Assembly (NCBI GenBank): GCA_964525395.1
Contig: CAZGGU010000002.1
Location: 30,263 to 94,262, forward strand
Origin: an uncultured Gammaproteobacteria bacterium
GTDB lineage: Bacteria; Patescibacteriota; Microgenomatia; Levybacterales; UBA12049
Direction: 5' to 3'
Length of the DNA: 64,000 nucleotides
Below the pieces are notes generated by a model. That model searched no databases, was not told the DNA's origin, and saw nothing but the letters and a program-made list of their open reading frames with translations. Made by a program: the position numbers and the translations under genes. Position 1 is the stretch's first letter. Each line of letters opens with the position of its first letter. Shown one piece after another: positions 9,945 through 37,183 of this stretch.

Positions 9945-9952
9945 TAAGCTTA

Positions 9953-9984: not shown

Positions 9985-9996
9985 CAAAAACTAGCT

Positions 9997-15950: not shown

Positions 15951-15953
15951 ATG

Positions 15954-19885: not shown

Positions 19886-20013
19886 CTATTCTCTTTCCCT
19901 GCCTAATATTAACAATAGAATAATATGTGAAAAATCCCATTTCAAGGCTATCGAAATAGATCAGGTTTAGAAGAAATTGGCCTTAAATGTGAAAAGCCAT
20001 TTCTGACTAGAAG

Positions 20014-20388: not shown

Positions 20389-20431
20389 AAATTTAGCGTA
20401 ACAAAGAGGGGATTAAATCTCAAGCGGAAGT

Positions 20432-20851
20432 TTAACTGTTGGTGTAATTGGTAAGTGTGGGAAGAGTTAAATTGGTTAAGTTAATTCCGAAAAAGCCAAG
20501 TAAAATGTTCAAGATAAAGAATGACAAGAACATGATTGCGAGACCGATAAGAGCTGCTACAATCATTTGTCTTGATGCATCAACCTTCTTGGAGTCTCCG
20601 CCTGACATTATCCACTGAATTCCTCCAAAAATAAGGAAGCCGAGAGCAATAATTACGCCGATTACGAAAACTACTTGGATAAGGGTAGCCACTATTCCGC
20701 TGAAATCAGAGAGAGTTAATTTACAAAGTCCGCCAAATCCTCCACCAGGGCATACGCTAATTTTTTGTTGAGCATGTGCTTGAGGAGCGAGTGTTAAGAA
20801 TGGTACCGCTGAAAGTGAAATGGCAGTTATCTTTTTCATGTATATAAACAT
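20432..20851 (-). CDS. VirB2/TrbC-like pilin paralog 2 (with cleavable signal peptide)
   Basis: Signal peptide ...LTLAPQAHAQQ; FLIFGGIQWIMSGGDSKKVDASRQMIVAALIGLAIMFLSFFILN. Confidence 0.55.
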   Translation of the reverse strand: MFIYMKKITAISLSAVPFLTLAPQAHAQQKISVCPGGGFGGLCKLTLSDFSGIVATLIQVVFVIGVIIALGFLIFGGIQWIMSGGDSKKVDASRQMIVAALIGLAIMFLSFFILNILLGFFGINLTNLTLPTLTNYTNS

Positions 20852-20887
20852 CGTAGAAATATTTTAAATTCTTGTCAAGGGGTCAAT

Positions 20888-21223
20888 TTATGTGAGCTTT
20901 AAAAGATTGAGTCCGAAGAATCTGCCGACTACATTAATTATGAAAAATGCTAAGAAGGTGATGATAAGGCCAATCGCTGCGAAAGTAATTTTCTTTCTGG
21001 CCCCATCTACAGCTTTCGCATCTCCACCTGATGAAATCCACTGAATCCCGCCCCACATGATGAAAAATAAGGCTGCTAAGACTGCAGCAATAAACATGTA
21101 TGTAATTCCCAAGCGAATTACACCTTGAAGAGTGGGGAGACCAGACTCAGGCATGCCACCAATGGGTTTTAAATCAATTTGTTTGCCGTCACTGGGAACT
21201 TTAAGTGCTATTTCTCTAATCAT
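20888..21223 (-). CDS. VirB2/TrbC-like pilin paralog 1
   Basis: FFIMWGGIQWISSGGDAKAVDGARKKITFAAIGLIITFLAFFIIN; two TM hairpin. Confidence 0.55.
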   Translation of the reverse strand: MIREIALKVPSDGKQIDLKPIGGMPESGLPTLQGVIRLGITYMFIAAVLAALFFIMWGGIQWISSGGDAKAVDGARKKITFAAIGLIITFLAFFIINVVGRFFGLNLLKLT

Positions 21224-21225
21224 AT

Positions 21226-22470
21226 TTAACTAAATCCTGGAAGACCAAGGATATCAACTGTAATTAATCTAAGAATTGAGAGAGAAAAGATGATGAGTAA
21301 AAGTCCTGCAACGGCTGCTATTATGGCTTCTCTTGCTTCTGCTATTTTTTTAGGGTCCCCCTGTGAGGTCATTAGTTTAAATCCATTAGCGATAAAAAGA
21401 ATAATAAGAATTCCACCGGAAAGACTGAGGACGAGAATCAGCACGCTTCTAGCAAAGCCTTCAGGATTAATCCCAATCTTACCTATAGCTGTGTTGCAGG
21501 AGTTTGGAATTGCTTCGCCGGATTTAGGCTGACAGGGATTAGAAACTTTATTGCCCGGGTAGTCATAGCAGCCCAACTTTCCATCTGTGCCTGTGGTGCA
21601 GTATTTGCCACCGCATTCGGAATCATTATTGCAGCCTGAATGACCACCGTTTTGATCCACCGTGAAAGAGTCTGAGCAGTTTGTGTTATATTTGCCATCG
21701 ATCTGGACTTTATATGAGTTTTCTCCTATTAAATCATTTCCTACCGATACTCCCGCCGCTGCCTCGAGTTCACTTCTAGTTGGTGTAAATCTTTTTATCT
21801 CTGATCCATTTTCAGTTCCATTTATTTGAATAATTCTGACAAGCATTTTATCTTCAGGTTTTTCTGTAAACTCCTTTTTAAATGCAGCTTTTATTTTAAC
21901 TTCAGTTCCAGGCTTAAAATCAGTGTTTAGATATGTAATCGTGCAAAACTTATTGTCAACGCTAGTTTTTTGAATTTCCAAAGAGGCGCTTCCTAGGCTG
22001 CAGAGTAGAAAATCTCTGTTTTGACCCTGCTCTCCTTGGTGTCCGGTGGTTCTTAAATTGAATTCATATTTGCCAGGGTTGAAATCTGATGCATGATCCC
22101 CCTTTGTGTTTCCATTTCGATCAAATGGGGTATTAACAGTTGCGAGAGTATCTTCTTCGAATCGTTCCAGCGTCACTTTCGCAGGTACATTTGATTTATA
22201 AAATAAATCTCCAGTATCTTCTCCAATCGTACGAATGTCTCCTCCTTGTGGATTTATTGTCATTTCAATATTTGACGTAAGTGGAATTTGTTGACCCTTT
22301 ATTTTTAAGGTGATGCTATTTATTATATGGTCATCATCTCCTGCAGACTGTTTTTCTGAAATCTTCTGGATAGAACATTCACTTTTAGAATTTTGAGCAT
22401 AAGTAGGCTGAGTGTAAGTTGAAACAATCAGTATTAAAAAGAGTAGGACAGCAAAGATAATTCTTTTCAC
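21226..22470 (-). CDS. secreted Cys-rich extracellular domain fused to C-terminal pilin-like module (candidate minor pilin/tip adhesin)
   Basis: Signal peptide MKRIIFAVLLFLILIVSTYTQPTYA; Cys-rich GCNNDSECGGKYCTTGTDGKLGCYDYPGNKVSNPCQPK; C-terminal ILFIANGFKLMTSQGDPKKIAEAREAIIAAVAGLLLIIF shares the pilin paralog motif. Confidence 0.5.
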   Translation of the reverse strand: MKRIIFAVLLFLILIVSTYTQPTYAQNSKSECSIQKISEKQSAGDDDHIINSITLKIKGQQIPLTSNIEMTINPQGGDIRTIGEDTGDLFYKSNVPAKVTLERFEEDTLATVNTPFDRNGNTKGDHASDFNPGKYEFNLRTTGHQGEQGQNRDFLLCSLGSASLEIQKTSVDNKFCTITYLNTDFKPGTEVKIKAAFKKEFTEKPEDKMLVRIIQINGTENGSEIKRFTPTRSELEAAAGVSVGNDLIGENSYKVQIDGKYNTNCSDSFTVDQNGGHSGCNNDSECGGKYCTTGTDGKLGCYDYPGNKVSNPCQPKSGEAIPNSCNTAIGKIGINPEGFARSVLILVLSLSGGILIILFIANGFKLMTSQGDPKKIAEAREAIIAAVAGLLLIIFSLSILRLITVDILGLPGFS

Positions 22471-22506
22471 AATTTTATCGTAGAAGAAAATGAGATTTTT
22501 GGCAAG

Positions 22507-23814
22507 TTAAGGTGTGAATTTAAAGCCGCGTCCTTTTACAGTTTGCAGATGAAGCGGTGAATTAGGGTTTTCTTCAATTTTTTTCCTAACCCTAAAAATA
22601 AGTTGATCAAGCGCTTGCTCTGAGACCCCAACTGTAGTGCCTAAATCTCCCCAAACTGCAGAGATGATTTCCTCTCTTTCGATTATCTTGTCAGGATTCA
22701 TTAGCAGATAAGCAAGAAGCTTAAATTCAGCAGATGTTAAAGATTCTGAAATAATAATTTTTCCTTTTTTAATTTCTTTAGACTCTTTATTAAAACTAAT
22801 CTTTTGAGTATCTGTCTCATTTTGTTTTTTTGCATAAGACATGAGTAGCGGAAGAGCAAATTTATTATCCCTAACTAATCCTACTGCCACGAGATGTGAA
22901 GAATCGTGAGCTTTGTTTTCCTCGATGAGGTTTTGCTCAAATGGAGTAAAATATTTCCAAATTTCTTCCAAAACTGCCTTGATTCTGCTGTTTGAAAATA
23001 AAGATTTTTCTAAATTTTCTTGTTCACCGTTTTCTAGACAAGCCTCAGCTGCTACTCTGGTTAGTTTTCCTACGCCTCCAGTTAAATTCGTGACTGTCTC
23101 GAGTGTTTGCTCTGAAAGTTTTTTATTCGCTTGTTTTTGAATATAATTTAACCTGAAATCTAAAACTGCCTTATTCATCAGCGGCAAATATACTATATTT
23201 CCTACTACGAATTCGTAATAATCAGCAATTAAATCATTTTCTACTATTTCTTCGAGTGGGCGAGAGAGAGGAAAGATAGCAGAGAAGCGATATTTAGCTC
23301 TGTCTCTAAGAACCCTAAGATTGCTAAAAAATTGTGGCGTAAGCATTGGGAGATATTCCTCAAAGCGATCGAAGAGAAAAACAACTGTATATTCTTTTTC
23401 AAGTGACAGATAATCAATAGATTTTCGCAGTCCTTGAAACAGAACTAGTTCATCGTTGGTTTTGAGGCTTTGTTCGAAAAGTCCACGAATATATTTAGAT
23501 TCTTCTTCCAGATGGCGTTCTTCAAAAGAATCAAGTAGCTCAAGAAACATATACTTGGTAGCCTCAGTTAATGGTCGTTTTTTAATTTCAGAGAAATTCA
23601 TCATGACGAAGTGAAACCATTTTTCGTTTTCCTTGAGGTGAAGAGTTCTGGCTTCGCGATTGTAGGAAAGAAGTCCCATGATGTTGGATCTTCCTACGCC
23701 TGGAAGAGAAACGATTTGCGCAGAATTTCCAGATTTTATATATGAGAGGACTTTATCAATTTCATCAAACCATGAATCTGGGGGATATAGAGATTCGAAA
23801 TGTTTAGGATCCAT
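22507..23814 (-). CDS. transcriptional regulator: N-terminal P-loop/STAND-like NTPase domain + C-terminal OmpR/PhoB-type winged-helix DNA-binding domain
   Basis: C-term LTSAEFKLLAYLLMNPDKIIEREEIISAVWGDLGTTVGVSEQALDQLIFRVRKKIEENPNSPLHLQTVKGRGFKF = trans_reg_C wHTH; N-term SLPGVGRSNIMG (degenerate Walker A) and VVFLFDRFEE (Walker B-like). Confidence 0.55.
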   Translation of the reverse strand: MDPKHFESLYPPDSWFDEIDKVLSYIKSGNSAQIVSLPGVGRSNIMGLLSYNREARTLHLKENEKWFHFVMMNFSEIKKRPLTEATKYMFLELLDSFEERHLEEESKYIRGLFEQSLKTNDELVLFQGLRKSIDYLSLEKEYTVVFLFDRFEEYLPMLTPQFFSNLRVLRDRAKYRFSAIFPLSRPLEEIVENDLIADYYEFVVGNIVYLPLMNKAVLDFRLNYIQKQANKKLSEQTLETVTNLTGGVGKLTRVAAEACLENGEQENLEKSLFSNSRIKAVLEEIWKYFTPFEQNLIEENKAHDSSHLVAVGLVRDNKFALPLLMSYAKKQNETDTQKISFNKESKEIKKGKIIISESLTSAEFKLLAYLLMNPDKIIEREEIISAVWGDLGTTVGVSEQALDQLIFRVRKKIEENPNSPLHLQTVKGRGFKFTP

Positions 23815-23914
23815 TAAAACATTGTAATCTAACTAGCCTCAAAACGTCAATTTTATAAGGCTTTTGTAATGTAGATATCAAGTCTATAGTTTGATTTTTC
23901 CTTAAACTACGCAC

Positions 23915-26900
23915 ATGGAAAGAGAAGCTTTCACGCCAGAAGAATTGACAGGACAAGGCCAAAACGCCTATTCTAGAAGTATGCCAGAAACACCTGATAA
24001 TCCTATTAAAGGTCCTGAACAAATACCGCCTCAAAGAGTAAAAAGACCACATTCAGAAGTTAACCCATCGTCAATTGAAGAAAGAATTCAGCAAATGGCG
24101 GAGGAATATCGAGGAAAAGGAATTCCTGTAGATTTTGGCACTCTCCAAGCTTTTAGAGCTCTTGCAGAAAGAGGAATTATGCCAATGGGTGGAGGCGCAG
24201 ACGATCCCGATGGGGGACCTGCGGGGGGAAGAAGACGAAGAAGAGCGGGAGCAGATGGAGTGCCGCCAATTCCACTAGATGAACAAATTAATGCATTTGC
24301 AGAAGCGAATGGGCTTAGTCCTGAAACCGACCGTGCTTATATTCTTAACGCGTTGGACCGTCAAAGAGCAGATGATGAGAGAAGAGCTGCTAGAGCTCAA
24401 GGGGCAGAGGGGTGGAGAACTATGTATCTTAAGGATCAGGACATGGAAATTTTGAACAGAAATCCCATGGAGTGGATCGAGGAAAAGTTTAATGAAATAA
24501 ATGCTCTTGCTAAGAAAGGAGCAGAACTTGATTCTCCTGCGCTTCAGCGTATTCAAACACTTTTCGGAGAAGCGCATGAGTACGTAGCTAATTTTAAGAA
24601 AAATGATCCTGAGCTAGTTCAGCAATTTACTGATGTATTTTTAGGAAGACTTAACTTAATGTTTATGGCTTCCACTATTGAGCTACGAGATTTAGAGTCT
24701 GCAGGGAAAATGGCAAGAAGAACAAAAGCTTCTACTCTATTTAGTGCGATGGAATATGAAGATGGAAAAGTAGGAATGCTCTATAACAGAATGCAAACTA
24801 TGTATGAAGATTACAGATTGGCTATCGGAGGAGTAGATAGAAAAATATTACCCGAGTTTGAATCTCGATTCCAGCAATTTATTATAGACGGAGAAATGAA
24901 GATGGCGAAGAGAGGGGTAGGTGAATATGCGGCCAAATATGCAGAAATAACGGCTATTGTTAATGGGCAAGGATTGTCAGAAAGACAAAGAGTAATACTT
25001 GGGAAGATGGGAATAAATCCCGATGATCCTATTCAGGCTACCCCAGAAAAGCTAGAAGAAGCAAGACAAGCTGAGATAAATGACAGAATTGAGCTAGATA
25101 TTAGAAGAGCAATGGGACCTGCTTGGGATATTTTCCGTATAACCCAGCGTCATGCGGTTATTAATGCTAGAGCGCATAAAACAAATTCTAGAGATGTTAA
25201 GAAATTGGCTGGAGGTTGGAAGGAGTTTTTAGGTCAGAATGGTGCTGCTTTTGCTTCATTTAACGCGGAAAATATGCTCTGGGAGGAATATGGCCTCTAT
25301 ACTGGTCATGATTGGGCTTTTGTAAGAGAAATTAAGCGTGATCTGGCAACTTCAGAGATAGCAGATAGGCTCAAAAATATTAAGAAAAAAAGAGCTAAAT
25401 TAAATGCTGGTGAAGATCCAGATAAAGATGATCATCATGTAAGCGATGAGGATGAAGGAGAAGAGGATCATCATGTTCTTCATGATGAACATCCAGAAAC
25501 ACCTGAACAAAGAAATGTTAGATTTGCGGAAATACGTAGACAGCTTCAAATTGAAGAGAATATTTTACGCAACATGACACAAGCAGATGTGGATGAGTTT
25601 GGAAAGACGCTCTTTAGAGATATGTATGCAGCTGCTGATTTTTACTCCTCTGGGTGGAGAATGAACGGTATCTTAGATCAGCTTGACAAGTATGGAAATT
25701 ATTTAAATTCTCAGGATGGGGTGGATCCACATCATCCAGTATTTGATTCCAAAAATTTCGGAATGTTTGTTCGATTAAGGGCAGATGCAGGTGGTAGAAG
25801 AGATACCTGGGAAAGAATTGCCACATTTCGACAGGAGGAAATATTAAGGCTTTACAGAGATAAAATTCTGACAGAGCCTAGCCCACAGTACGATAGCCAT
25901 GGTCATAAAATTAAGGCAAAAAAGCCAGCGCCAGATTATATGAAGCCGTCGCTTGATTTATTCTTCGGTAAGCTTAGAGAAATGGGAATAACTACTGACG
26001 ATTTACCTGCAGAATTAAAAGATGCTCAAACAACTGAATACGATGTATTTAAATTAAGGTATGGAGCAGCGATTCAAACTATTCGCCAGCAGGAGATGGA
26101 GGCTAGGGGAAATGGAGTACCGCGTCAAATAGACTTTTCTGCAATTGAGGTAGGATCAGATGACTATGTAAGATTTAAAGAAATAATTGATAATTCAGTG
26201 GGAAAGGAAGGAGCAATTGATGATGTCATAAGAGTTTACAAGGAAATGAATAGATTCATTGGACGTAGGGATGCTATTGGTTTTGAACCCAAGGTGATTG
26301 ATAGGCTTATTTATGATCCCAAGTTTGCGGATATTTACACGAGAGTGATAACAGCAGATGATATCCTTTCAACAAAGATTGAAGGACCCTCATCGCCTAT
26401 AACTTCTCTTACTCAAAGTGTTTCCGTAGATCAGGCAACTGACGCACTTGTTAGAAATTTTAATGATTTAGGCCATGCGGGAAATGCAATGGGTGGACTT
26501 TTGACGTTCGTTAAAGAAGAGCACGAAGAACCTAGATTAAAGGCAGCGCTTGAATTCGCTGAAGAAGCAAGCATGTATGGAGGGCAGGATGCTAGAGCTA
26601 AGAATGTAAGATTTACTTTTGGAACTTATCTTAATCTAGCGAAGAAAGATTGGCTTTGGGACACAATGGATTTTGAGTCAGGGCCTGCAAGAAAAGCGAT
26701 TTCAAATGCACAGAAAATATATGGGCCACAGTTGAAGGCTAAATCAAGAGCAGAATTAAGACATGAATTAGATGAAATTAGATATAAGCTCGAGGGCGCC
26801 TTTGGAGGACACCTCGGTGATAAATATTATAGAGAGCTTGAGCATATGCTTGAGGTAACTAGTGGAGATTCTAATAAGATGAGATTTATGTCATTCATGA

Positions 26901-27028
26901 TTGTTTTAATTGCAGCAGCTCTTGTAACACCAGTTGGAGTTTCTAAAGATAGCTTTAATGATGTTGGAGGACTTCTCGCAGGTGGTGGGGGCGGCGGCGG
27001 TGGTGGTGGGGGCGGAGGCCATCATTAA
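23915..27028 (+). CDS. 1037-aa hydrophilic, charged/coiled-coil protein, tail-anchored (single C-terminal TM) with C-terminal poly-Gly-HH tail; unknown function
   Basis: No signal peptide; only hydrophobic segment FMSFMIVLIAAALVTPVGV near C-terminus followed by GGGGGGGGGGGGGHH; locally GC-rich 5' region encoding GGGADDPDGGPAGGRRRRRAGADG. Confidence 0.5.
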   Translation: MEREAFTPEELTGQGQNAYSRSMPETPDNPIKGPEQIPPQRVKRPHSEVNPSSIEERIQQMAEEYRGKGIPVDFGTLQAFRALAERGIMPMGGGADDPDGGPAGGRRRRRAGADGVPPIPLDEQINAFAEANGLSPETDRAYILNALDRQRADDERRAARAQGAEGWRTMYLKDQDMEILNRNPMEWIEEKFNEINALAKKGAELDSPALQRIQTLFGEAHEYVANFKKNDPELVQQFTDVFLGRLNLMFMASTIELRDLESAGKMARRTKASTLFSAMEYEDGKVGMLYNRMQTMYEDYRLAIGGVDRKILPEFESRFQQFIIDGEMKMAKRGVGEYAAKYAEITAIVNGQGLSERQRVILGKMGINPDDPIQATPEKLEEARQAEINDRIELDIRRAMGPAWDIFRITQRHAVINARAHKTNSRDVKKLAGGWKEFLGQNGAAFASFNAENMLWEEYGLYTGHDWAFVREIKRDLATSEIADRLKNIKKKRAKLNAGEDPDKDDHHVSDEDEGEEDHHVLHDEHPETPEQRNVRFAEIRRQLQIEENILRNMTQADVDEFGKTLFRDMYAAADFYSSGWRMNGILDQLDKYGNYLNSQDGVDPHHPVFDSKNFGMFVRLRADAGGRRDTWERIATFRQEEILRLYRDKILTEPSPQYDSHGHKIKAKKPAPDYMKPSLDLFFGKLREMGITTDDLPAELKDAQTTEYDVFKLRYGAAIQTIRQQEMEARGNGVPRQIDFSAIEVGSDDYVRFKEIIDNSVGKEGAIDDVIRVYKEMNRFIGRRDAIGFEPKVIDRLIYDPKFADIYTRVITADDILSTKIEGPSSPITSLTQSVSVDQATDALVRNFNDLGHAGNAMGGLLTFVKEEHEEPRLKAALEFAEEASMYGGQDARAKNVRFTFGTYLNLAKKDWLWDTMDFESGPARKAISNAQKIYGPQLKAKSRAELRHELDEIRYKLEGAFGGHLGDKYYRELEHMLEVTSGDSNKMRFMSFMIVLIAAALVTPVGVSKDSFNDVGGLLAGGGGGGGGGGGGGHH

Positions 27029-27053
27029 TTGACATAGGTATTAAACTTTAATC

Positions 27054-28625
27054 TTAATGGCCACTACCGTACGGTTTCGTAAATCCTGAATATATCATTG
27101 CCTTCGCAAGAATATTAGTTCCTTTTCCACCTCCATGTTGAGCATGTACGTTCCTTGCCCATGTGTCAGCTGCAGTCTTTGGAATTCCTAAGTATTTTCC
27201 GCCAACTCCGAGTGGTCCCATAATATTTCCAAAATTAACACCTGGAGCTTTGAACGCATCTTTAGTGGTGGTTAAGACATTTGGTAGCATTAAAATAAAT
27301 CCAAGACCAACTATTGCCCCGATTGCTTCGGTATTCGTTCCGCCAACCAGTGGGGGAACGAATCTCGTTACAGAGTCGCCATTAAAGGATTCAATGAAGT
27401 AGGAGGCAAGTAGGAAAAAAGCTACAGCTACTGGATAAACGGCTAAATTGGCTAAAAGATCTTTAATCCATACTCCTATCCCAGCTTTGGAGCCTGGCAT
27501 AACTCCAGCGATAATCCAAAATGGAGCAAAAATAATATCAAGAATTAAGTTTACATAGGCAACAACGAGTACGACCCAAACCCTAAATAAACAGACAACT
27601 ACCGCAATGGCAATAATTAAAAATGCTAGGATGTTTACAATCACACCAACTACGCCACCAATTATATTTCCCACAATATCTCCATTGCCGAAGTTAGAAG
27701 ATGGACCAGTAAAGACTGATTTGATAACTTCAGCAAAAGCAGATGATACTTGTCCTGCGATTCCCAGTATTCCGCCATTTTCACTAAAAGCGGCATTAGC
27801 TGCATTAAAAGGATTAGAGGCTCCCACGACTGCATTAGCAGCTTCAGGAGACACTACAGTTGAGGTAGCGCTTTGGATGACAAAAGCAAAAAGGTAGGTA
27901 GCTACGAACATGATATCAATGAGTAATCCGGCGATTGCAAATGAGAAGGTAACTGCAATTATTCCCATAATTATTTTGGGTAATTGATTTTGAATGGTCA
28001 TCACGTCATGTGCGTCAATATGGACCCTAAGCATTATTCCAAGACCGACAACGACGAAGGCGAGAATTAGAATTAAGTAGACAATATTTCTCATAGCCAC
28101 CCACAGTGGAAGAACGGGCTGGAGGCCGCAAAAGCCAACTCCTCTAGAAAGATTTTTACATGGATCAGTATTTTCTTGAGCATAAACTTTATCTCCTACG
28201 CCGAAATTACCTTTAAGATATGCAGTATATTGAGTAAAAGAGGCGGGCGGGGTAAAAGTCATATCAATTGCCTTTCCCATAACGGCGATTAAACCTCCCC
28301 CATTTTCTACATAACCGATTTTACCTGTTTCTGGATTTACACCTAGACACTGTGTGCCTGGTCTGGTTGGGTCCACTCCTGTGAGTTGGCAAGCCATAGC
28401 CGACATGGTTTCGATAAGTAGTATCTGAACTCCATTATGCATGTTCATTTCTACATTCGCTTCAGCATCTAAATTTTCTGTTTGTATATCAGCTTGAGGA
28501 GTAGTGGCCTCAATTTCATCAAGTGTTCCTGGAGTTTGCGCATAGGTTTTATGTGAAATTCCAGCGAAAAGAGCGAGGAATAAAAAGAAAGCAAGAAAAA
28601 ATAATTTCTGGGCAGAAATTCTCAT
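27054..28625 (-). CDS. VirB6/TrbL-like polytopic membrane protein
   Basis: Signal peptide then large periplasmic-type domain, then >=7 hydrophobic helices and Gly-rich C-tail; architecture of VirB6/TrbL/PrgH family; adjacent to T4SS genes. Confidence 0.5.
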   Translation of the reverse strand: MRISAQKLFFLAFFLFLALFAGISHKTYAQTPGTLDEIEATTPQADIQTENLDAEANVEMNMHNGVQILLIETMSAMACQLTGVDPTRPGTQCLGVNPETGKIGYVENGGGLIAVMGKAIDMTFTPPASFTQYTAYLKGNFGVGDKVYAQENTDPCKNLSRGVGFCGLQPVLPLWVAMRNIVYLILILAFVVVGLGIMLRVHIDAHDVMTIQNQLPKIIMGIIAVTFSFAIAGLLIDIMFVATYLFAFVIQSATSTVVSPEAANAVVGASNPFNAANAAFSENGGILGIAGQVSSAFAEVIKSVFTGPSSNFGNGDIVGNIIGGVVGVIVNILAFLIIAIAVVVCLFRVWVVLVVAYVNLILDIIFAPFWIIAGVMPGSKAGIGVWIKDLLANLAVYPVAVAFFLLASYFIESFNGDSVTRFVPPLVGGTNTEAIGAIVGLGFILMLPNVLTTTKDAFKAPGVNFGNIMGPLGVGGKYLGIPKTAADTWARNVHAQHGGGKGTNILAKAMIYSGFTKPYGSGH

Positions 28626-28667: not shown

Positions 28668-28676
28668 TGATATAAT
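28668..28676 (+). promoter_or_regulatory. extended -10 element TGATATAAT upstream of tRNA-Ser
   Basis: tgatataat 18 nt upstream of tRNA 5' end. Confidence 0.45.
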
Positions 28677-28694
28677 ATTGAGGCTAAAATTTTA

Positions 28695-28781
28695 GGAGAG
28701 GTCGCATAGTGGTCTAGTGCGGATGTCTTGAAAACATCTGTGGGTGCAAGCCTACCGCGAGTTCGAATCTCGCTCTCTCCG
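28695..28781 (+). tRNA. tRNA-Ser (anticodon UGA), type II long variable arm
   Basis: Acceptor GGAGAGG/TCTCTCC, D-arm GCA-TAGTGGTCTAG-TGC, anticodon stem GATGT/ACATC with loop CTTGAAA, T-arm GCGAG-TTCGAAT-CTCGC. Confidence 0.85.
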
Positions 28782-28815
28782 CATATAGCGAGATGAGAAG
28801 TTTATGGTGAGCTTG

Positions 28816-28843
28816 TCGAATCCAAATCTCGCTCTCTCCGCAC
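28816..28843 (+). repeat. direct repeat of the tRNA-Ser 3' end (tcgaatc..atctcgctctctccgca), att-like remnant
   Basis: 17-nt perfect repeat of 28767-28783 at 28827-28843 plus upstream tcgaatc; also hairpin atctcgct/agcgagat at 28767-28790. Confidence 0.6.
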
Positions 28844-28878
28844 TAGAATAAAATTCCTCCTAATGATAAACTAAATTT

Positions 28879-29391
28879 ATGGAGTCTGCTCAGCCTCTTC
28901 ATCATGAAACTAAAACCCTGCTTTCTTGGAGCGCGTATGGTAGGCCTTATGTAAGGCGAGGAAAACAGTTTTATTTAACCGCCACACTTCTAGCGATTTT
29001 AATTTGTATTATTCTTTTTCTTTTTCATCAATACTTATTTATATTTTTAGTTGGTTCGTTTCTTTTTGTAGCTTTTGCTTTTGCATACACGCCTCCGAAA
29101 AATTATCATTATAAAATTTCGAGTGAAGGCATACTTATTGAAAAGAAGTTTTATCTCTGGGAAGAGCTTTATGACTTTTATTTTATGAAGAAGAATGGGG
29201 AGGAAATATTGTATGTTAGGACTGAATCATTTTATCCAGGAGCTTTAGTAATTCCACTTGGAGAACTGCCCAAAGACCAGGTAAAGCAGGCAATTATCAA
29301 TTATCTTCCCTATAGAGAATATGTAGAGCCTACGTTTATGGATAAATCAGGAGATTGGCTGGTAAAAAATTTTCCTCTTGAGAAAAATTAG
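28879..29391 (+). CDS. membrane protein, two TM + C-terminal bacterial PH-like domain
   Basis: Two hydrophobic helices LLAILICIILFLF / IFLVGSFLFVAFAFA; C-term resembles YdbS/YdbT-type bPH fold (weak). Confidence 0.35.
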   Translation: MESAQPLHHETKTLLSWSAYGRPYVRRGKQFYLTATLLAILICIILFLFHQYLFIFLVGSFLFVAFAFAYTPPKNYHYKISSEGILIEKKFYLWEELYDFYFMKKNGEEILYVRTESFYPGALVIPLGELPKDQVKQAIINYLPYREYVEPTFMDKSGDWLVKNFPLEKN

Positions 29392-29476
29392 CGGAGGGTA
29401 CAGGATTTGAACCTGTGAAGAGCTTTCACCCTCGGGTTTTCGAAACCCGTGCAATTGGCCACTATGCGAACCCTCC
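29392..29476 (-). tRNA. tRNA-Ser (anticodon CGA), type II
   Basis: Reverse complement GGAGGGT-TC-GCA-TAGTGGCCAAT-TGC-A-CGGGT-TTCGAAA-ACCCG-long V arm-ACAGG-TTCAAAT-CCTGT-ACCCTCC-G. Confidence 0.8.
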
Positions 29477-29493
29477 TCAAGTTATATATTTTG

Positions 29494-29567
29494 TACCCTC
29501 GAATGGAGTCGAACCATCGGCCTTAGCGTCCGCAACGCTACGCTCTATCCAGCTGAGCTACGAGGGC
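29494..29567 (-). tRNA. tRNA-Arg (anticodon GCG by my folding)
   Basis: Reverse complement GCCCTCG-TA-GCTC-AGCTGGATA-GAGC-G-TAGCG-TTGCGGA-CGCTA-AGGCC-GATGG-TTCGACT-CCATT-CGAGGGT-A; D-arm identical to canonical tRNA-Arg. Confidence 0.7.
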
Positions 29568-29684
29568 ATGTTTATATTATATCAATAAATAAGCTTATAA
29601 GATAATTTTTGTAATCTTTTTATAAAGTTAATATCAAGCCTCATTAATCTTTAAGAGCTAAACTACGCTTAGAAAGGAGAAGAT

Positions 29685-29903
29685 ATGTATCCCAAAGAAG
29701 GACAAATAAAAATTCAGGAAGCATTAGCAGAAGCAGAGCAGATTGTGTTTGAAGAGCAATATACAGCTGCTCAGGAAGAAGCAGAAGAAGCTGAGCTTGA
29801 GCAAAGACTTATGGAAGTAGAATTAGCAGCAGCAGCGCAGGAAGAAGCAGAGAGACAAGCTGAGATTACTCAAGAAAAAATTGCAGAAGTTGTAGGAGTG
29901 TAA
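29685..29903 (+). CDS. small highly acidic coiled-coil protein (72 aa)
   Basis: ORF with RBS-like aggagaag upstream; E/A/Q-rich. Confidence 0.3.
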   Translation: MYPKEGQIKIQEALAEAEQIVFEEQYTAAQEEAEEAELEQRLMEVELAAAAQEEAERQAEITQEKIAEVVGV

Positions 29904-29904
29904 C

Positions 29905-30237
29905 ATGAAAGAATTAAAAGACTTAATGAAAGATGTCGAGCGAGATCTTTTAATAGGAATAGTGATCTCAGTAAAACATAAACGATTGACTCTAAAAGAG
30001 TCAGAGAAAATTGCGAAAGAGTTTATAGAGGAAAAAACGGAAGATTATGAAAAACTTTTCAAAAAACTCTTTGAAATGGGTAAGAAATATAAAATAGTCA
30101 GAAAAATTTATGTTAAATATGCGCCGGAATATGAATATATGAAAAAAGAAAGGGACTTAAAAATTATGAGAAATTACATAGAAGAAAAAGATTATGAATC
30201 TGCCATTGAATTCGTGAAAGGAAACTATGGATACTAA
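29905..30237 (+). CDS. small K/E-rich hypothetical protein (110 aa)
   Basis: ORF immediately following previous (2-nt gap). Confidence 0.3.
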   Translation: MKELKDLMKDVERDLLIGIVISVKHKRLTLKESEKIAKEFIEEKTEDYEKLFKKLFEMGKKYKIVRKIYVKYAPEYEYMKKERDLKIMRNYIEEKDYESAIEFVKGNYGY

Positions 30238-30745
30238 TTTTGAGTCAACAACTCAAACTATTTCATCTCAGCCACCAGTTATCGAGCCCATTGAGGCTGG
30301 GGATTTAGACCTCCCAGTGATTGATAAGAAGGGAGACTCTCTGAGAATTACCTCTCAAGCACTTGAAGATTTTGAAGCCGAAGGGGAATCAATTATGAGT
30401 ATTCCGGGCTCACCTCATGAAAAACTTGCAGCATTAGCAGGAGGGAATATAATGCTCGAAGAGTTAAGAAAGGGAGGGAGTAAAAAAGAAAATAAAACAG
30501 ACAAAGCTCAAGAACTCAGCTTAGAGGAAAGAGTGTTAAAACTCCAAGAGGAGTTATTAAAATTGATGATTGCCAGAATGAAAGCAGAGAAAAAAGATCC
30601 TAAGAAAGAAGACGAAATTTATAAAAAACTGAAAAAACTTCTAGAGGAGGCAGAAGGGGAAGGTAAGGCTAATATTCTTCAGTCGCTCATGAATATCACA
30701 TTTATGCTTTATATGATTTCGAATGAAAATTCTTCAAGAGCTTAA
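30227..30745 (+). CDS. hypothetical protein (172 aa), acidic N-half, K/E coiled-coil, hydrophobic C-terminus
   Basis: ORF overlapping previous by 11 nt; C-term ILQSLMNITFMLYMIS. Confidence 0.3.
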   Translation: MDTNFESTTQTISSQPPVIEPIEAGDLDLPVIDKKGDSLRITSQALEDFEAEGESIMSIPGSPHEKLAALAGGNIMLEELRKGGSKKENKTDKAQELSLEERVLKLQEELLKLMIARMKAEKKDPKKEDEIYKKLKKLLEEAEGEGKANILQSLMNITFMLYMISNENSSRA

Positions 30746-30753
30746 ATATTTTC

Positions 30754-30762
30754 TGGTATAAT
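30754..30762 (+). promoter_or_regulatory. extended -10 element TGGTATAAT upstream of tRNA-Ser(GGA)
   Basis: tggtataat 18 nt upstream of tRNA 5' end. Confidence 0.45.
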
Positions 30763-30780
30763 ACGCACACACTAAGAACT

Positions 30781-30867
30781 GGAGAGTTCGCATAGTGGTC
30801 TAGTGCGTTCGCTTGGAAAGCGGATGTGGTCGTAAGGCTACCGGGAGTTCGAATCTCCCACTCTCCG
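30781..30867 (+). tRNA. tRNA-Ser (anticodon GGA), type II
   Basis: GGAGAGT-TC-GCA..TGC-G-TTCGC-TTGGAAA-GCGGA-long V arm-GGGAG-TTCGAAT-CTCCC-ACTCTCC-G. Confidence 0.85.
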
Positions 30868-30881
30868 CAGTTAAAGTCTTA

Positions 30882-31322
30882 TTATCCTTGAGGGATCAAT
30901 TGTTTGGCTTCTTTCCACACTCTTTTATCAGAAGGGTAAGTTAGTCGTTTTTCTACTTCTTCCGCTGGAATCCATTCAACATTTTCCATTTCTTCATCGT
31001 GAATTGCTGTGTCTCCACCAGTAGCTCTCATCAAGAAATAATAAACGGTTTTTTTAATTTCTTCTTTTTCATTTTCTCCATTCCAAAAATATGTATACCA
31101 AATAGGTGACAGGGGTCGCTCAATTATAGCCTCTATTCCTGTTTCTTCTTTAACTTCGCGAACAGCTGTTTCTTCTTTTTCTTCGTGGGCTATATCCTCA
31201 CGGTCGCCAATAAGTCCTTTCGGGAAAACCCAGCCATGATGATAGGAGTGTTGGCAAACAAGGATCATGAGATTGGGATCAAATTTATAAACTACGCCAC
31301 CCGCAGAAGATTCTTCAGTCAT
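30882..31322 (-). CDS. NUDIX hydrolase
   Basis: Nudix box GWVFPKGLIGDREDIAHEEKEETAVREVKEETGI (G.5E.7REV.EE.GI). Confidence 0.8.
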   Translation of the reverse strand: MTEESSAGGVVYKFDPNLMILVCQHSYHHGWVFPKGLIGDREDIAHEEKEETAVREVKEETGIEAIIERPLSPIWYTYFWNGENEKEEIKKTVYYFLMRATGGDTAIHDEEMENVEWIPAEEVEKRLTYPSDKRVWKEAKQLIPQG

Positions 31323-31339
31323 GGAGAGATTATATCAGA

Positions 31340-32425
31340 TTAAAAGGTAATTCTTTCACAAGAGAGATGTGGGATAAGAACAATCATGTGGAAGAATCTC
31401 ACAGGAGTGTAGTTTAATTGGCATCTAAAGATTGGTCCATGAACTATTACTTTTGGAGTAGGTGTAGGAATTCCAGGGGTTGGGGAAAGTGTAACTGTAG
31501 GAGTCATGGTTGGTGAAGTAGTAGGCGTGGAAGTTGGACTTACGCTTGGCATGTTGGTAGGGGAAACAGTCGGAGAATTACTTGGCATAGGGCTCATGGT
31601 TGGAGAAGCAGATGGCTCGTTTGATGGGGTTGGAGAAGCAGTAGCTGAAGGATTTACGCTAGGAGTCATGGTTGGTGATGCGCTTGGAGTAATAGTGGGC
31701 ATTGGGGTGGCAGTAGCTCCACCGGGAGTTTCAGTTCCTGATGCTTTATTCTGAGACTGTGTAAGAACTCTAACTACGAAATCATTAATGTTATTTTCTG
31801 TGTCTTCGCCATTTCCATTAGCTTCATCAGGTCCCCCAAAAGCCATAGTTGAAGTAGTAGAGCTTGCATTAGCTTTTCTTTCTACGCTTTGTCCTGGTTC
31901 AGGGTTGGTGAGAGGATTTCCCTCGCCAAGAGTATTAATGACAGTTCCAAAGGTTACTGCATCTACGAGTGCGCCAGTATCGATTGCCCCATCTCTTAGG
32001 CCGATACTGTTATTGTCTGCAATTGTTGCGCTTGTAGCCCTGTCGCAGGAAAGAGTAGCAACGAGATCATTATTGCACCAAAGAAAATATCCGTTGGCTG
32101 GTATTACATCACCGTCATTAAAAGCAACTATGCTGTCGTCAGCATCTCCAGTAGAAGACCTTTTTACTAGTCGATATTCTTTGAGGTCAACGTCTGAAGC
32201 GGTAGGATTATAAAGTTCTATGAAGTCATGGGTTGATGCGCCATCTTCTCCTGTTTGAACTTCTGAAATTACTACATGATTAGCAGTAGCAGCAGAAGCG
32301 AAATGGGATTTTTGAAAGAAAAGAAAACCTACGAAGAGAATTATGAAGATTCCTAGAAAAGCTGGCAGTAGTCTTTTCATTACTTTATGTATAATCCTAT
32401 TTTTCAGCTCTGTCAACTGAGTCAA
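31340..32425 (-). CDS. secreted/anchored protein with lamin-tail domain (LTD) and long Pro/Thr/Ser-rich repeat linker
   Basis: N-term TM; [38 protein letters not shown] matches LTD signature; 31440-31760 encodes SPT(M/V)xPS-type repeats. Confidence 0.55.
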
Positions 32426-32440
32426 AAGAGGTCAAATGCT

Positions 32441-32533
32441 TGGCGGAGGAGATGGGATTTGAACCCATGTGAGCGTTATTCACACTCAGGAATTTAGCAA
32501 ACTCCCGCAATGGACCAACTATGCGACTCCTCC
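32441..32533 (-). tRNA. tRNA-Ser (anticodon GCU), type II, CCA encoded
   Basis: Reverse complement GGAGGAG-TC-GCA..TGC-G-GGAGT-TTGCTAA-ATTCC-long V arm-ATGGG-TTCAAAT-CCCAT-CTCCTCC-G-CCA. Confidence 0.8.
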
Positions 32534-32673
32534 TCGTCAAAGCATGACCTTTTGTCTTCATTAAGCTAAAGCTTAATTTCGACTTGAGGGGCATCTTTTC
32601 CTCTTAAAATTCTTTCAGAATTTTATAGAACCCGAGACTAGTGGTTATTATATCATTTGAAGGCTAGAAAAAC

Positions 32674-33048
32674 TTGCAATTTCTCCACAAACAATCAATA
32701 CTAATATATAGTATGCCGCTTGAAGAAAGTGAAAAATTGGAGTTGGAAAAAAGAATGGTGGATTTGATGCTAGATCAAATGGCGGAAGGAAAGCTAACAG
32801 ACAACCAAGCACAATCTATTTCCAGATATTGCGAAGAAAGCTTGAAAAACGTGAAGAATAAACAGCATCTCTCAGAATTCCTCTCAGTTTTAGTCAGTAA
32901 ATATCCTTTTTTCCAAAGCATTCAAGCTTCAGAGCAAGGTAAAGTGGACGAAGCGGTAGATAAAGAGGTTCATGAGGGAGCCTTAGTACTCGCTCAGCAC
33001 GGAAAGATCGAGGAGGCGATCAAGCTGACCCAAACAGCTACCAATTAG
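32674..33048 (+). CDS. hypothetical acidic protein (124 aa)
   Basis: ORF directly upstream (2-nt gap) of the 598-aa tail-anchored protein. Confidence 0.35.
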   Translation: MQFLHKQSILIYSMPLEESEKLELEKRMVDLMLDQMAEGKLTDNQAQSISRYCEESLKNVKNKQHLSEFLSVLVSKYPFFQSIQASEQGKVDEAVDKEVHEGALVLAQHGKIEEAIKLTQTATN

Positions 33049-33049
33049 T

Positions 33050-34846
33050 ATGCCAGACGAGCAGATATTAGCCCAAGCTACACTTGAGAAAAACCCTATT
33101 CCTTCAGGAGGAGTGTTATCTCCTGATCAGCAGCGTGCAAAAGATATTAGAATAAAAATGGGAGAAGGTAAGGGGCTATCTGCTTTTGATGCTGCAATAA
33201 GCTCCTCACAAAGAGTTGAGGTTGGAGCAAGAACGAAAACGCTAGATGCGAATTTTGGAATTGATCGCGATCCCACAACTGGTGCTAAAAAGAGAGACGC
33301 TGCAGCTGAGCCTGGCTCTCAAGATAGATATGATCGTGCCCAAAAAGCCCTTCAACAAGCTGAAGAAATACTTAGTGTTGGTTTAACCACAGACAGAGAT
33401 GCTTTGCTTGCAAATTTGGAAAGCGCTATGTCTGTTTTGCCAGGATATAGTGATTACTTGTCTACAATTTCTGATCCTAATATTCGAAAAGCTATGGTCG
33501 AAGATCTTCTAAGAAACCCAAAATTAATGGAAAAGATCCGAGCTGGGCATGATCGAGTGACTGCTGAATCAGCGAGATTAAAAGATGAAGTAACAGAAGC
33601 CAAGAAAAAAGCAGACGAGGCAGAAGCAGCTAGGGTTAAGAAGCAGGGAGAAAGAGATGCTGTTAGCGGGAAAGGCGGTACCCTTGATTCAGCTAGGACA
33701 GCAGAGCTGAGTTTTGCTGACACTAGTACGGCAGGAGCAAAGGGAACAGAATTAGAAGTTCTTCAGAAAGATTCTACAGGAGCTCCAAGAGATCTGGAGG
33801 CAGAAGAAAGAGATGCCTTGAATGCTAGAAATCGTGCAAAGACGCTATTCGATGCTAGAAATAAGAGATTTGCAGATGTGCAAGTGGCAGGAAAAGTTCC
33901 AGGCAATAAAGAATATGACGAAGCTGAAGGATTATTGAATGTTGCTCAAAGAGATTTAAGCAATTCTGAAAATAGTTATTCGAGAGCAAGAAAAGATAAA
34001 GCAAGAAGAACAGAGCTTGAGAAAGAGAAGGCAGAGCTTCCTGGAAAAATAAGACAGCTTGAGGCTGATGAAATTAGATTGATCGGTGAATATTCTGATG
34101 CTGAAAAAGCAGCTTTAATAGCTAGGGCAGACTTAAACTCTAAACAAGTAGATCGAGCTGCAGCTGAAGAGGCATACGCTTCGAATGCTGAAAGAGTAGT
34201 ACCCGATGCTCTCAGAGATCACTTAAGAGAGCAGATGCATGCAGCAGATGAGGCGAATAGAGCGCTTCTGGATAAAATGGAAACAGATGCTAGAACAGCG
34301 GGAGAAAAAAATATAGTTAAGCAAATTAAGGAAAGATATTTAACGAAAAAAAGAAATTTACGTGGTAACGAAGAATTAGCTTTTGATAAAAATAAAGCTA
34401 AGGAAGATGTTGCCTTCTTTATGAACGGTGGAACTCCGGACAAAATGGTACAAGCGGCTTTAGAGGCGACTTATGGTGCCGGAAGTCCAAAGGTTGCTGA
34501 GTTTATGGCAAAGCCAGACTTCGTTTCTACGTATGGAAATGAGATAGTAAAGCAGGCTTTTATGAGATATGTGGCTGATGGTGGTAAGATATCTGCTGCA
34601 CAACAAGCATATATCGAGGCTCAGCCATGGGGTCAAGGCTTAATCGAATCTGCTTTATCTGCCCCAAGCGTTAAAGCTAAAGAAAAAGAACTTAAAGAAA
34701 AAGGATTACTGCCTTCAGGTGGTTTCGTGGAGTTAGTAAAAAATAATAAAGGTAAAATTGGATTAGGTATATTGCTTATGATCGCGATGGGGCTATTGGC
34801 TCCTACTGCCATTCCTATGATCGCTGGTGCGGTGGGTGCGGTATAA
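33050..34846 (+). CDS. 598-aa charged coiled-coil protein with C-terminal hydrophobic anchor (tail-anchored), unknown function
   Basis: No signal peptide; extensive K/E/A/R coiled-coil; C-terminus IGLGILLMIAMGLLAPTAIPMIAGAVGAV. Confidence 0.45.
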   Translation: MPDEQILAQATLEKNPIPSGGVLSPDQQRAKDIRIKMGEGKGLSAFDAAISSSQRVEVGARTKTLDANFGIDRDPTTGAKKRDAAAEPGSQDRYDRAQKALQQAEEILSVGLTTDRDALLANLESAMSVLPGYSDYLSTISDPNIRKAMVEDLLRNPKLMEKIRAGHDRVTAESARLKDEVTEAKKKADEAEAARVKKQGERDAVSGKGGTLDSARTAELSFADTSTAGAKGTELEVLQKDSTGAPRDLEAEERDALNARNRAKTLFDARNKRFADVQVAGKVPGNKEYDEAEGLLNVAQRDLSNSENSYSRARKDKARRTELEKEKAELPGKIRQLEADEIRLIGEYSDAEKAALIARADLNSKQVDRAAAEEAYASNAERVVPDALRDHLREQMHAADEANRALLDKMETDARTAGEKNIVKQIKERYLTKKRNLRGNEELAFDKNKAKEDVAFFMNGGTPDKMVQAALEATYGAGSPKVAEFMAKPDFVSTYGNEIVKQAFMRYVADGGKISAAQQAYIEAQPWGQGLIESALSAPSVKAKEKELKEKGLLPSGGFVELVKNNKGKIGLGILLMIAMGLLAPTAIPMIAGAVGAV

Positions 34847-36617: not shown

Positions 36618-37052
36618 TTATAAGGCTAATTCACGGTCTAAATCACGCTGTAGGTCTTTGCGTTTTTTAGCATCTTTTTTATCAAATTGCTTTTTTCCGC
36701 GACCAATTCCTACCTCAAGTTTTATTAGCCCATGTTTGAGATAAAAGGCGATGGGTACTAAGGCTGATCCAGCTCCATCAGTTTTACCTTTGAGGCTAAT
36801 TATTTCCCTTTTATGAAGAAGAAGTTTTCGAGATCTAGTTTCATCATAATTTTCTGGCCTAGCGTATTCATAAGGAAAAATCTTGGCATTAATTAGATAT
36901 GCTTCTGAGCCTATTATTCTTACGTGGCTGCCTGATAAATCGGCATGCCCTAGTTTTACTGCCTTAACTTCAGCTCCGATAAGATTTATCCCAGCTTCTA
37001 TTTTTTCACCTATTTGATAGTCATAAAATGCACGTTTATTAGTTATTTTCAT
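36618..37052 (-). CDS. smpB: SsrA-binding protein SmpB
   Basis: 144 aa; KITNKRAFYDYQIGEKIEAGINLIGAEVKAV...LLLHKREI motifs of SmpB; basic C-tail. Confidence 0.85.
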   Translation of the reverse strand: MKITNKRAFYDYQIGEKIEAGINLIGAEVKAVKLGHADLSGSHVRIIGSEAYLINAKIFPYEYARPENYDETRSRKLLLHKREIISLKGKTDGAGSALVPIAFYLKHGLIKLEVGIGRGKKQFDKKDAKKRKDLQRDLDRELAL

Positions 37053-37183
37053 CCTTCGACAGGCTCAGGACAAGTAGGTGGAGTCTGCATTGCTATGATA
37101 CTAGAGAAGAAGGGAATTGTAAATTTATTCACGCACCTCTGACAAGTGATGGCTTTTTGATTGGAATAAAAAAGGTGTAGAAT

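Follow-up and report, generated by a model that had tools for sequence, protein, structure and literature searches.

A putative relic of a tRNA-targeting GIY-YIG cassette, devoid of its open reading frame, behind tRNA-Ser(UGA) of a Levybacterales bacterium

In a 64,000-nucleotide (nt) stretch of contig CAZGGU010000002.1 (positions 30,263 to 94,262, forward strand; hereinafter the window) from an uncultured member of the Levybacterales (Patescibacteriota), the gene for tRNA-Ser(UGA) is followed at a short distance by a second copy of its own 3' end. Judging from sequence comparisons, we propose that the segment 28784-28842, which holds this copy, is probably a relic, lacking an open reading frame (ORF) and likely inactive, of a homing-endonuclease-like GIY-YIG cassette that targets tRNA genes. 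The proposal draws on a structured module shared with many copies behind tRNA genes, on the fixed limits of the duplicated tRNA 3' end, and on the GIY-YIG ORFs that lie between tRNA and module in full-length members. The original prediction had seen here the footprint of integrase-mediated insertion or excision at a tRNA; the duplicated 3' end is indeed of the type that mobile elements leave behind, but it shows no link to an integrase.

The exact direct repeat, AATCTCGCTCTCTCCGCA, is 18 nt long with 41 nt between its copies (Table 1), and on ungapped extension it reaches 26 nt at 88% identity. When up to three mismatches are allowed it matches the window three times, the third match lying inside tRNA-Ser(GGA), while 0 of 100 shuffles gave three or more. 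A 28-nt repeat at 28816-28843 had been predicted: the repeat is real, but only 28825-28842 is exact, and the preceding GTCGAATCC (28816-28824) is T-loop-like at best, being part of a conserved hairpin and not of the repeat. The discriminator G of tRNA-Ser(UGA) occupies 28781 and is followed by CA. The repeat starts at T-loop nt 58 and runs 2 nt past the discriminator, limits that correspond to the identity block of T-loop-type attachment (att) sites.

Positions 28788-28842 constitute one copy of a conserved module of ~55 nt, with a 5-nt mimic of the T-stem 5' strand, AT-GAGAAGTTTA, a hairpin (hairpin B) and tRNA nt 58 to the 3' end, in that order. Spelled out, the window copy reads GCGAG AT GAGAAGTTTA TGG TGAGCTTGTCGAAT CCA AAT CTCGC TCTCTCC GCA. 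The family consensus of hairpin B is NNN-TGAGC-N3-5-CGAA-N'N'N', with a loop able to form U-A, tandem G.A/A.G and G-C pairs; the mimic enters a second helix (P1) with the T-stem 3' strand of the downstream copy. A covariance model built from 67 module copies finds in the window one full copy (28788-28840, 58.9 bits) and isolated pieces consisting of the hairpin only. Of 116 matches that were unselected for pairing, 100 have a fully paired stem B, against 48% with shuffled partners; P1 is paired in 84.5% of cells, four of its five pairs varying on both sides; and the covariation of P1 and stem B (0.58 versus 0.205) was not equalled in any of 500 shuffles.

The downstream 3' copy is identical to the neighboring tRNA in 46 of 60 cases, and 24 of 60 family members have a 5-nt mimic identical to the T-stem 5' strand. 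Element nt 58-60 track the T-loop of the element's own tRNA in 55 of 58 instances (AAT with AAT in 42, AGT with AGT in nine and ATT with ATT in four), and the identity between the copies typically stops 2-3 nt beyond the acceptor strand. From this T-loop covariation and these identity limits, the duplicated block can be defined as tRNA nt 58 to the discriminator plus 1-2 nt, and these limits are fixed across the family.

Several other accounts of the module were tried and set aside. The P1 5' strand is not the remainder of a longer tRNA duplication, the 7 nt upstream showing only chance identity; nor is it an extended inverted copy of the 3' strand of the kind that hairpin-end repair might leave, pairing beyond 5 bp being barely above the control, with exceptions in loci L009 and L055 (L and P numbers are our labels for loci or contigs and for proteins). 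A mini-ORF, ATG AGA AGT TTA NNN TGA (MRSLX), was discarded because variants with AC-GAGAAG lose the ATG and the stop is missing in L009. Comparison by eye gave no fit of the core sequences to hammerhead, HDV-like/theta, twister, pistol, C/D-box or K-turn motifs; likewise, Rfam 15 returned no meaningful non-tRNA match for window positions 28680-28900 (E ≤10) or for 13 element-bearing loci (E ≤1).

Among the relatives of the window, the same motif with a tRNA 3'-end copy follows tRNA-Ser(UGA) in L055, tRNA-Ser(GCU) in L009 and L082, and tRNA-Ser(GGA) in L021; in L019 a Ser(GGA)-type 3'-end copy with the motif stands at the start of the contig. A scan of metagenome contigs with the pattern ATGAGAAGTTTN{3,5}TGAGCN{3,6}CGAA yielded at least 120 loci. 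After duplicate removal these give at least 99 unique copies, this and the further counts for the family being among the matches listed; 70 of the 99 have a tRNA gene on the same strand within 400 nt upstream. The tRNA-linked copies span at least 25 anticodon types, the motif as a whole being present in more than 100 unrelated contigs, and several loci hold tandem arrays of two or three identical units with a period of 60-106 nt. At the tRNA-Ser(UGA) site itself the species differ: the window has a short form and L055 a long one, L024 and L086 have a GIY-YIG ORF immediately behind the tRNA, and most loci have nothing. A peculiar arrangement was seen in L114 (~3150-5900, minus strand), where two identical copies of ~120 nt, each with hairpin A (see below), core and tRNA 3' fragment, flank 2.5 kb with three unannotated ORFs, no intact tRNA being predicted in the locus; this segment may be cargo captured between element copies.

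The link to a nuclease emerged when, for the metagenome loci, all ORFs up to 3.5 kb from the module were clustered and the top family was scanned against Pfam. This commonest family, present at 15 loci as against at most five for the next ones among the matches listed, consists of proteins of 80-115 amino acids (aa) made up of the GIY-YIG catalytic domain (PF01541, E 1e-12 to 1e-17). Their nearest solved structures are the UPF0213 proteins 1zg2 and 1ywl, labeled hypothetical by their depositors, and their homologs are mostly annotated as 'GIY-YIG nuclease family protein' of Patescibacteria. A UPF0213-type ORF lies between tRNA and module in 10 of the 99 copies: in L118, L131, L155 and L189 the order is tRNA, ~30-45 nt, ORF and module, and the ORF runs up to or into the module, while in L158, L182 and L202 it is tRNA, ORF, a short gap and module. 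The ORF of L189 takes its stop from the TGA within the invariant A-TGA-GAAG, and L155 apparently does likewise, as judged from its C-terminus.

In these forms a sequence that we call box1 (CTTCGRCAAGCTCAG) starts the 5' untranslated region of the ORF directly after the tRNA, and its inverted copy, box2 (CTGAGTTTGGTGAAG), is located in the last codons of the ORF. In the ORF-less 'long' forms box1 and box2 are joined as a hairpin, termed hairpin A; elsewhere the spacer between tRNA and module holds an intrinsic terminator (other lineages) or shrinks to 3-27 nt ('short' forms, including the window). The full-length element, as read from the sequences, accordingly has the order: intact tRNA, box1, GIY-YIG ORF with box2, T-stem mimic, AT-GAGAAGTTTA, hairpin B, and the copy of nt 58 to the 3' end. 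As the GIY-YIG ORF is present in 10 of the 99 family members but not in the window, the window copy is classed as an ORF-less derivative.

The association of such ORFs with tRNA genes extends beyond the module. Across all fetched loci, 26 of 63 GIY-YIG ORFs begin just after a tRNA on the same strand, and 12 of these 26 have a copy of that tRNA's 3' end within 200 nt downstream, behind at least three unrelated hairpin types; in the 80 Levybacteria loci described below, 14 of the 22 GIY-YIG ORFs are within 80 nt of a tRNA. Where the downstream copy differs from the resident tRNA (L023, L041, L053 and L118), this fits a displaced older allele. The proteins identical to P0179 and P0230 mostly occur in one context each or in non-tRNA contexts, and are uninformative for the element. 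P0179, a 96-aa GIY-YIG protein, has one and the same context in nine contigs of L231-L240, with infB on its left and UDG, NUDIX and MgtE on its right; in L235 DUF4446 and a second infB-like gene take the place of these right-hand neighbors, as if the nuclease gene marked a rearrangement breakpoint.

Briefly, we infer a nuclease activity, a cleavage site, homing and a part for hairpin B in a scheme of the following kind. By analogy with free-standing GIY-YIG homing endonucleases, the nuclease would make its break within or close to the T-loop of a tRNA gene that lacks the cassette, and repair would copy the cassette from a filled allele, the two homology arms being the tRNA body on the left and the 18-nt copy 2 on the right. 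The cassette can be read as inserted at T-loop position 57/58 and as carrying a replacement for nt 58-75; because a replacement 3' end is supplied, the tRNA would stay functional, while the old 3' end, that is copy 2, would be pushed downstream. With both arms located in the conserved tRNA, spread would be possible between genomes that differ in their intergenic flanks. Loss of the ORF between the inverted boxes may have produced the long forms with hairpin A, and further deletion the short forms, whereas the tandem arrays might arise from recurrent breaks together with unequal exchange at the 18-nt repeats. The same break-and-repair may also explain the shuffled order and orientation of the four serine tRNA genes among the relatives. 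The window copy would then represent a late, ORF-less stage of a homing cycle.

On functional grounds, the closest analogue and main precedent appears to be SegB, a protein of ~220 aa that has a DNA-binding domain. This GIY-YIG homing endonuclease of phages T4 and T6 resides in a tRNA cluster, cuts tRNA-containing DNA, spreads by break repair with co-conversion of the flanks, and can drive tandem (segmental) amplification (PMC2330249; PMC13096335). Common to both is a GIY-YIG gene among or next to tRNA genes, with cutting and homing presumed in our case. In contrast to the phage protein, those considered here are chromosomal in Patescibacteria, of UPF0213 type and, at 80-115 aa, restricted to the catalytic domain; SegB has no known tRNA 3' duplication, whereas these elements have a hairpin module and a precise copy of nt 58 to the 3' end, and their ORF-less miniatures far outnumber the full copies. 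The ORF-less majority, the loss of the ORF between inverted repeats and the sporadic distribution recall the degenerate stages of homing endonucleases and their derivatives resembling miniature inverted-repeat transposable elements (MITEs), from which our family differs in a gene-specific, target-derived duplication of 18 nt. Group I introns, some with homing-endonuclease genes, likewise invade tRNA genes of this phylum as selfish elements and self-splice from the anticodon loop (PMC13011429); here, however, the tRNA is uninterrupted and the module is too small for a group I ribozyme. The survey of Patescibacteria tRNA introns reported neither insertions nor duplications at the T-loop (PMC13011429), and a full-text literature search turned up no account of UPF0213-type cassettes with such a duplication of tRNA 3' ends. 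The family is thus apparently undescribed, and would combine a homing-endonuclease-like selfish element with an integrase-like preservation of the tRNA target.

Certain observations weigh against the reading as a relic of a GIY-YIG cassette. A six-frame hidden Markov model search found no GIY-YIG ORF in the 64-kb window, and the window copy is therefore unable to act alone; as the ORF is present in only 10 of 99 copies, it might be a passenger of hairpin A and not the driver. In L024 and L086 the ORFs behind tRNA-Ser(UGA) lack both core and duplication. The conservation of the core is in part a matter of ascertainment, because the scan demanded an exact 20-nt pattern. No near-identical strain pair with a filled and an empty allele was found, L001, a near-identical contig from another sample, being identical in sequence to the window. 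As for the mechanism, the intact upstream tRNA of a filled allele keeps the presumed target, which leaves the avoidance of self-cutting unexplained; an 18-nt right arm is short for RecA-type repair; and the 5-nt T-stem mimic, being neither a longer duplication nor an extended inverted copy, has an unexplained origin.

That 90% of the copies lack an ORF makes an independent function of the module a serious rival, although we regard it as unlikely. Under this alternative the module would be a functional non-coding RNA or folded single-stranded DNA that mimics the T-arm and acceptor, and that serves as a processing signal, as a decoy that engages enzymes or toxins directed at tRNA 3' ends, or as a guide or scaffold, with the GIY-YIG ORF an occasional invader of hairpin A. 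The covariation of stem B and P1 around an invariant single-stranded segment would be expected of such a molecule, P1 is exactly a 5-bp T-stem, as if selected for a T-arm-like shape, and the full-length ORF sits exactly between the arms of hairpin A. However, the module is sporadic at orthologous tRNAs, with only the window and L055 having it among ~40 relatives with tRNA-Ser(UGA); many copies are downstream of an intrinsic terminator that follows the tRNA; identical units form tandem arrays; and the tRNA 3' duplication is seen with other GIY-YIG subfamilies as well, there behind hairpins of unrelated type. Nor is the fold of the window copy unusually stable (28783-28880, z = -0.92), a result that also disposes of a terminator or stable RNA fold at this place.

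Next, the family could be one of palindromes akin to repetitive extragenic palindromic (REP) elements or MITEs, moved by another enzyme or by recombination, its adjacency to tRNA and GIY-YIG genes being secondary. Box1 and box2 might be regarded as terminal inverted repeats, and solitary box or hairpin copies do occur off tRNAs, both in the window (37052-37070 and 55043-55085) and many times in relatives. The inverted box pair is found in long forms and is missing in the short form of the window, and the duplication, at 18 nt, is longer than is usual for MITEs. We hold such an origin to be improbable, since 70 of the 99 full-module copies are associated with tRNA 3' ends, the module always ends in tRNA-specific sequence, and clustering of the neighboring ORFs, with the top family scanned against Pfam, revealed no enriched transposase-like family.

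A rather improbable variant would keep the nuclease and have the module with its 18 tRNA bases act as a guide or scaffold RNA, or folded single-stranded DNA, that would point the GIY-YIG protein to cassette-free tRNA genes for cutting, the ORF-less copies being stand-alone guides. It takes its cue from the architecture of the OMEGA systems (TnpB/IscB with their omega/reRNA), in which a small nuclease ORF likewise overlaps a structured segment that is followed by ~16-18 nt equal to the target, and in which stand-alone RNA-like copies without the ORF are numerous. The likeness is one of architecture only: the OMEGA nucleases are of RuvC and not GIY-YIG type, and the upstream tRNA would match the guide. 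Since copy 1 would thus be a self-target, we keep this logic at a low probability.

The remaining account, with a tyrosine-integrase element (a prophage or an integrative and conjugative element) left or decayed at tRNA-Ser(UGA) and the 18-mers as attL/attR remnants, is highly improbable: the limits of the duplicated block from T-loop to 3' end are of T-loop att type, a type IV secretion system (T4SS) cluster adjoins at 13950-28625, and viral contigs carry integrase-type fragments of tRNA-Ser 3' ends, but the 41-nt interval that would have to be element-specific cargo is a structured motif conserved at over 100 unrelated loci of at least 25 anticodon types, the T4SS has a conserved place 5' of the tRNA, in the window as in relatives, a GIY-YIG family, the one scanned against Pfam, dominates the neighbors of the module, and the sole tyrosine recombinase that Pfam scans of the window ORFs detected is Xer-like and 27 kb away. 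That gene (60060-60920, minus strand) encodes a XerC/D-like protein of 286 aa, lies 320 nt 3' of tRNA-Ile(UAU) and adjoins an FtsB/DivIC-like gene; as the rest of the window holds no second copy of the tRNA-Ile(UAU) 3' end, it is probably a housekeeping Xer. Elements with T-loop or 3'-end att sites do resemble the present family in the direct repeat, the replacement 3' end, the divergent displaced copies and the tandem accretion; the family differs from them in its lack of an integrase, in an insert of 41 to ~400 bp and not of kilobases, in a structured core that abuts the displaced copy, and in an enzyme that is a nuclease and not a recombinase. A search for a phage attP gave exact 23-nt tRNA-Ser 3' matches in viral contigs that are either tRNA-Ser(GGA) genes or long att-type fragments of the classical kind, from the anticodon arm to the 3' end, without the core; matches to the core pattern in viral contigs lie within coding sequence and look like chance.

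Further pieces related to the family are scattered over the window. The box1-like sequence that directly follows tRNA-Ile(UAU) (Table 1) is probably a second, more decayed relic. Just 5' of that tRNA gene (59668-59741) is a partial copy of it (59611-59667), comprising its first ~26 nt (GCTTCTGTAGCTCAGC ... TCAGCGGTTAGAGCGG) with a 16-nt hairpin, CCCGATTAAATCGGGG, in the D-loop along with a 5-nt duplication (TCAGC); it follows a promoter-like box, TTTATAAT, and precedes the intact gene, and is thereby a 5'-side counterpart of the 3' duplication. A solitary hairpin B, TCC TGAGCCTGTCGAA GGA (37052-37070, minus strand; 16.3 bits, E 0.03), has a 3' stem that overlaps the smpB start codon and a Shine-Dalgarno-like GAAGGA; the hairpin could mask the ribosome-binding site of smpB or be a stray element piece. 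Finally, a hairpin A-like palindrome, TTCGACAAGCTCA ... TGAGTAGGGTCGAA (55043-55085), which over its first 20 nt is exactly reverse-complementary to 28804-28823, is found between an AdoCbl-II riboswitch (54913-54983) with its terminator and a cobalamin adenosyltransferase gene (55067-55642).

Table 1. Coordinates of the element, the neighboring tRNA genes and the ORFs between them (window positions).
Feature	Position	Strand	Remarks
Extended -10 box TGATATAAT	28668-28676	+	19 nt 5' of tRNA-Ser(UGA)
tRNA-Ser(UGA)	28695-28782	+	ARAGORN; Rfam tRNA model, 53.8 bits; no CCA encoded
Repeat copy 1	28766-28783	+	nt 58-60 AAT, T-stem 3' CTCGC, acceptor 3' TCTCTCC, discriminator G, CA
Linker TATA	28784-28787	+	Place of terminator, hairpin A or GIY-YIG ORF in longer members
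P1 5' strand GCGAG with conserved AT	28788-28794	+	Equals tRNA T-stem 5' strand; pairs with 28826-28832
Invariant unpaired segment GAGAAGTTTA	28795-28804	+	From alignment
Hairpin B, TGG / TGAGCTTGTCGAAT / CCA	28805-28824	+	3-bp stem covaries across the family
Repeat copy 2	28825-28842	+	tRNA nt 58 to discriminator, then CA; in the insertion model, would be the original 3' end, displaced
p170	28879-29391	+	170 aa; membrane protein; weak DUF5673 (bPH-like) match, Pfam E 0.007
tRNA-Ser(CGA)	29391-29476	-	ARAGORN, Rfam; 16 nt 3' of tRNA-Arg(GCG), co-oriented
tRNA-Arg(GCG)	29493-29567	-	ARAGORN, Rfam; TGATATAAT box at 29576-29584 (-)
p72	29685-29903	+	ORF, 72 aa
p110	29905-30237	+	ORF, 110 aa
p172	30227-30745	+	ORF, 172 aa
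tRNA-Ser(GGA)	30781-30868	+	ARAGORN, Rfam; TGGTATAAT box at 30754-30762 (+)
NUDIX hydrolase	30882-31322	-	Pfam; conserved cluster gene
Lamin-tail-domain (LTD)/PT-repeat protein	31340-32425	-	Pfam; conserved cluster gene
tRNA-Ser(GCU)	32441-32533	-	ARAGORN, Rfam; nearest TGATATAAT box at 32647-32655 (-)
Box1-like CTTCGATAAACTCAG	59742-59757	+	Directly after tRNA-Ile(UAU) discriminator; matches left end of long and full-length elements

The surroundings of the element had been described as an island of four serine isoacceptors and a tRNA-Arg, with small genes of unknown function between them. All five tRNA genes are called by both ARAGORN and Rfam RF00005, at 50.8-63.7 bits against a gathering score of 29. 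The small ORFs at 29685-30745 do exist, and the Pfam scan assigns no family at its cut-off to p170, p72, p110 or p172. Extended -10 elements of the type TGnTATAAT, of which the window has 12 against 3.3 expected, had been assigned to each tRNA individually; the boxes are real and precede four transcription units, but tRNA-Ser(CGA) uses the promoter of tRNA-Arg(GCG), and the box of tRNA-Ser(GCU) is 114 nt upstream of its gene.

The cluster was traced through 80 species-representative Levybacteria loci, fetched with the VirB6-like protein (27054-28625) as the anchor. In 28 of these loci the 10 kb upstream of the VirB6-like gene contain all four serine anticodons, contig ends cutting many of the remaining 52, and the adjacent, co-oriented Arg(GCG)/Ser(CGA) pair is usual in the 28, being almost always kept together. 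The content of this cluster of four serine tRNAs and tRNA-Arg is conserved, while its genes occur in 23 different arrangements of order and orientation among the 28 species. By tblastn, p170 is conserved in 43 of the 80 loci (57-70% identity), NUDIX has matches in 50, the LTD protein in six, which are the closest, and p110 in eight; the flanking His-phosphatase, ComF-like and SmpB genes are matched in 17-35 loci. Counterparts of p72 and p110, of 74 and 114 aa, stand in L009 at the equivalent position and in the same order. Being conserved in the clusters of relatives, p170, NUDIX, LTD, p72 and p110 are not cargo; p72, p110 and p172 are lineage-specific conserved genes, and the serine-tRNA 'island' is an old, conserved gene cluster and not acquired DNA with variable content. 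The closest relatives of the VirB6-like protein, P0002 and P0003 (59-62% identity), were unhelpful in this regard, one locus (L229) having a peptidase gene in place of the tRNA cluster upstream of the VirB6-like gene and the other (L230) starting only 96 nt upstream of it.

An additional tRNA-Ser with the anticodon ACU (loop TTACTAA), absent from the window, is present in eight relatives (L009, for instance at 3205-3290, L010, L012, L015, L017, L045, L061 and L083), where it mostly adjoins tRNA-Ser(GCU). To our knowledge, bacteria very rarely encode A34 in tRNAs other than tRNA-Arg(ACG). By eye, without alignment, p110 and p124 (32674-33048) resemble paralogs, both being K/E-rich and ~110-125 aa long; each is followed by a coiled-coil gene (p172 and p598, respectively), which gives two-gene modules beside the T4SS (29905-30745 and 32674-34846) that recur in L009 (5197-5541 and 7015-9104) and have no Pfam or NCBIfam match.

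More widely, rnpA, yidC, dnaA and dnaN are encoded in the window ahead of the Gram-positive-type T4SS. The T4SS cluster, taken at 9417-28625, begins ~1.3 kb after dnaN and includes VirB4-like, PrgI, four pilin-like and VirB6-like genes; a coupling-protein-like gene (57212-59569) is located 29 kb beyond it. Between the T4SS regulator and pilin genes and the VirB6-like gene lies the gene for a 1037-aa protein (23915-27028, plus strand), whose C-terminus consists of 13 glycines followed by HH; it has no Pfam match, and distant homologs occupy the same place in 14 relatives.

The main interest of these observations lies in the family that they reveal rather than in the window relic itself. For Patescibacteria, they add an abundant, conserved structured motif that has no match in Rfam. 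They also urge caution in annotation, as a repeat of a tRNA 3' end is not always an integrase att site or the boundary of a genomic island. Breaks made by such a nuclease at T-loops would explain how, in these reduced genomes, the serine-tRNA cluster could keep its content while changing its order, with 23 arrangements in 28 species. If our reading is true, the stand-alone GIY-YIG proteins of UPF0213/YhbQ type would be homing nucleases of tRNA genes, which would give them a concrete, testable role. The family would then exemplify a strategy in which a selfish element, by having its homology arms within the target and by bringing along a spare 3' end, may invade an essential tRNA gene without killing it.

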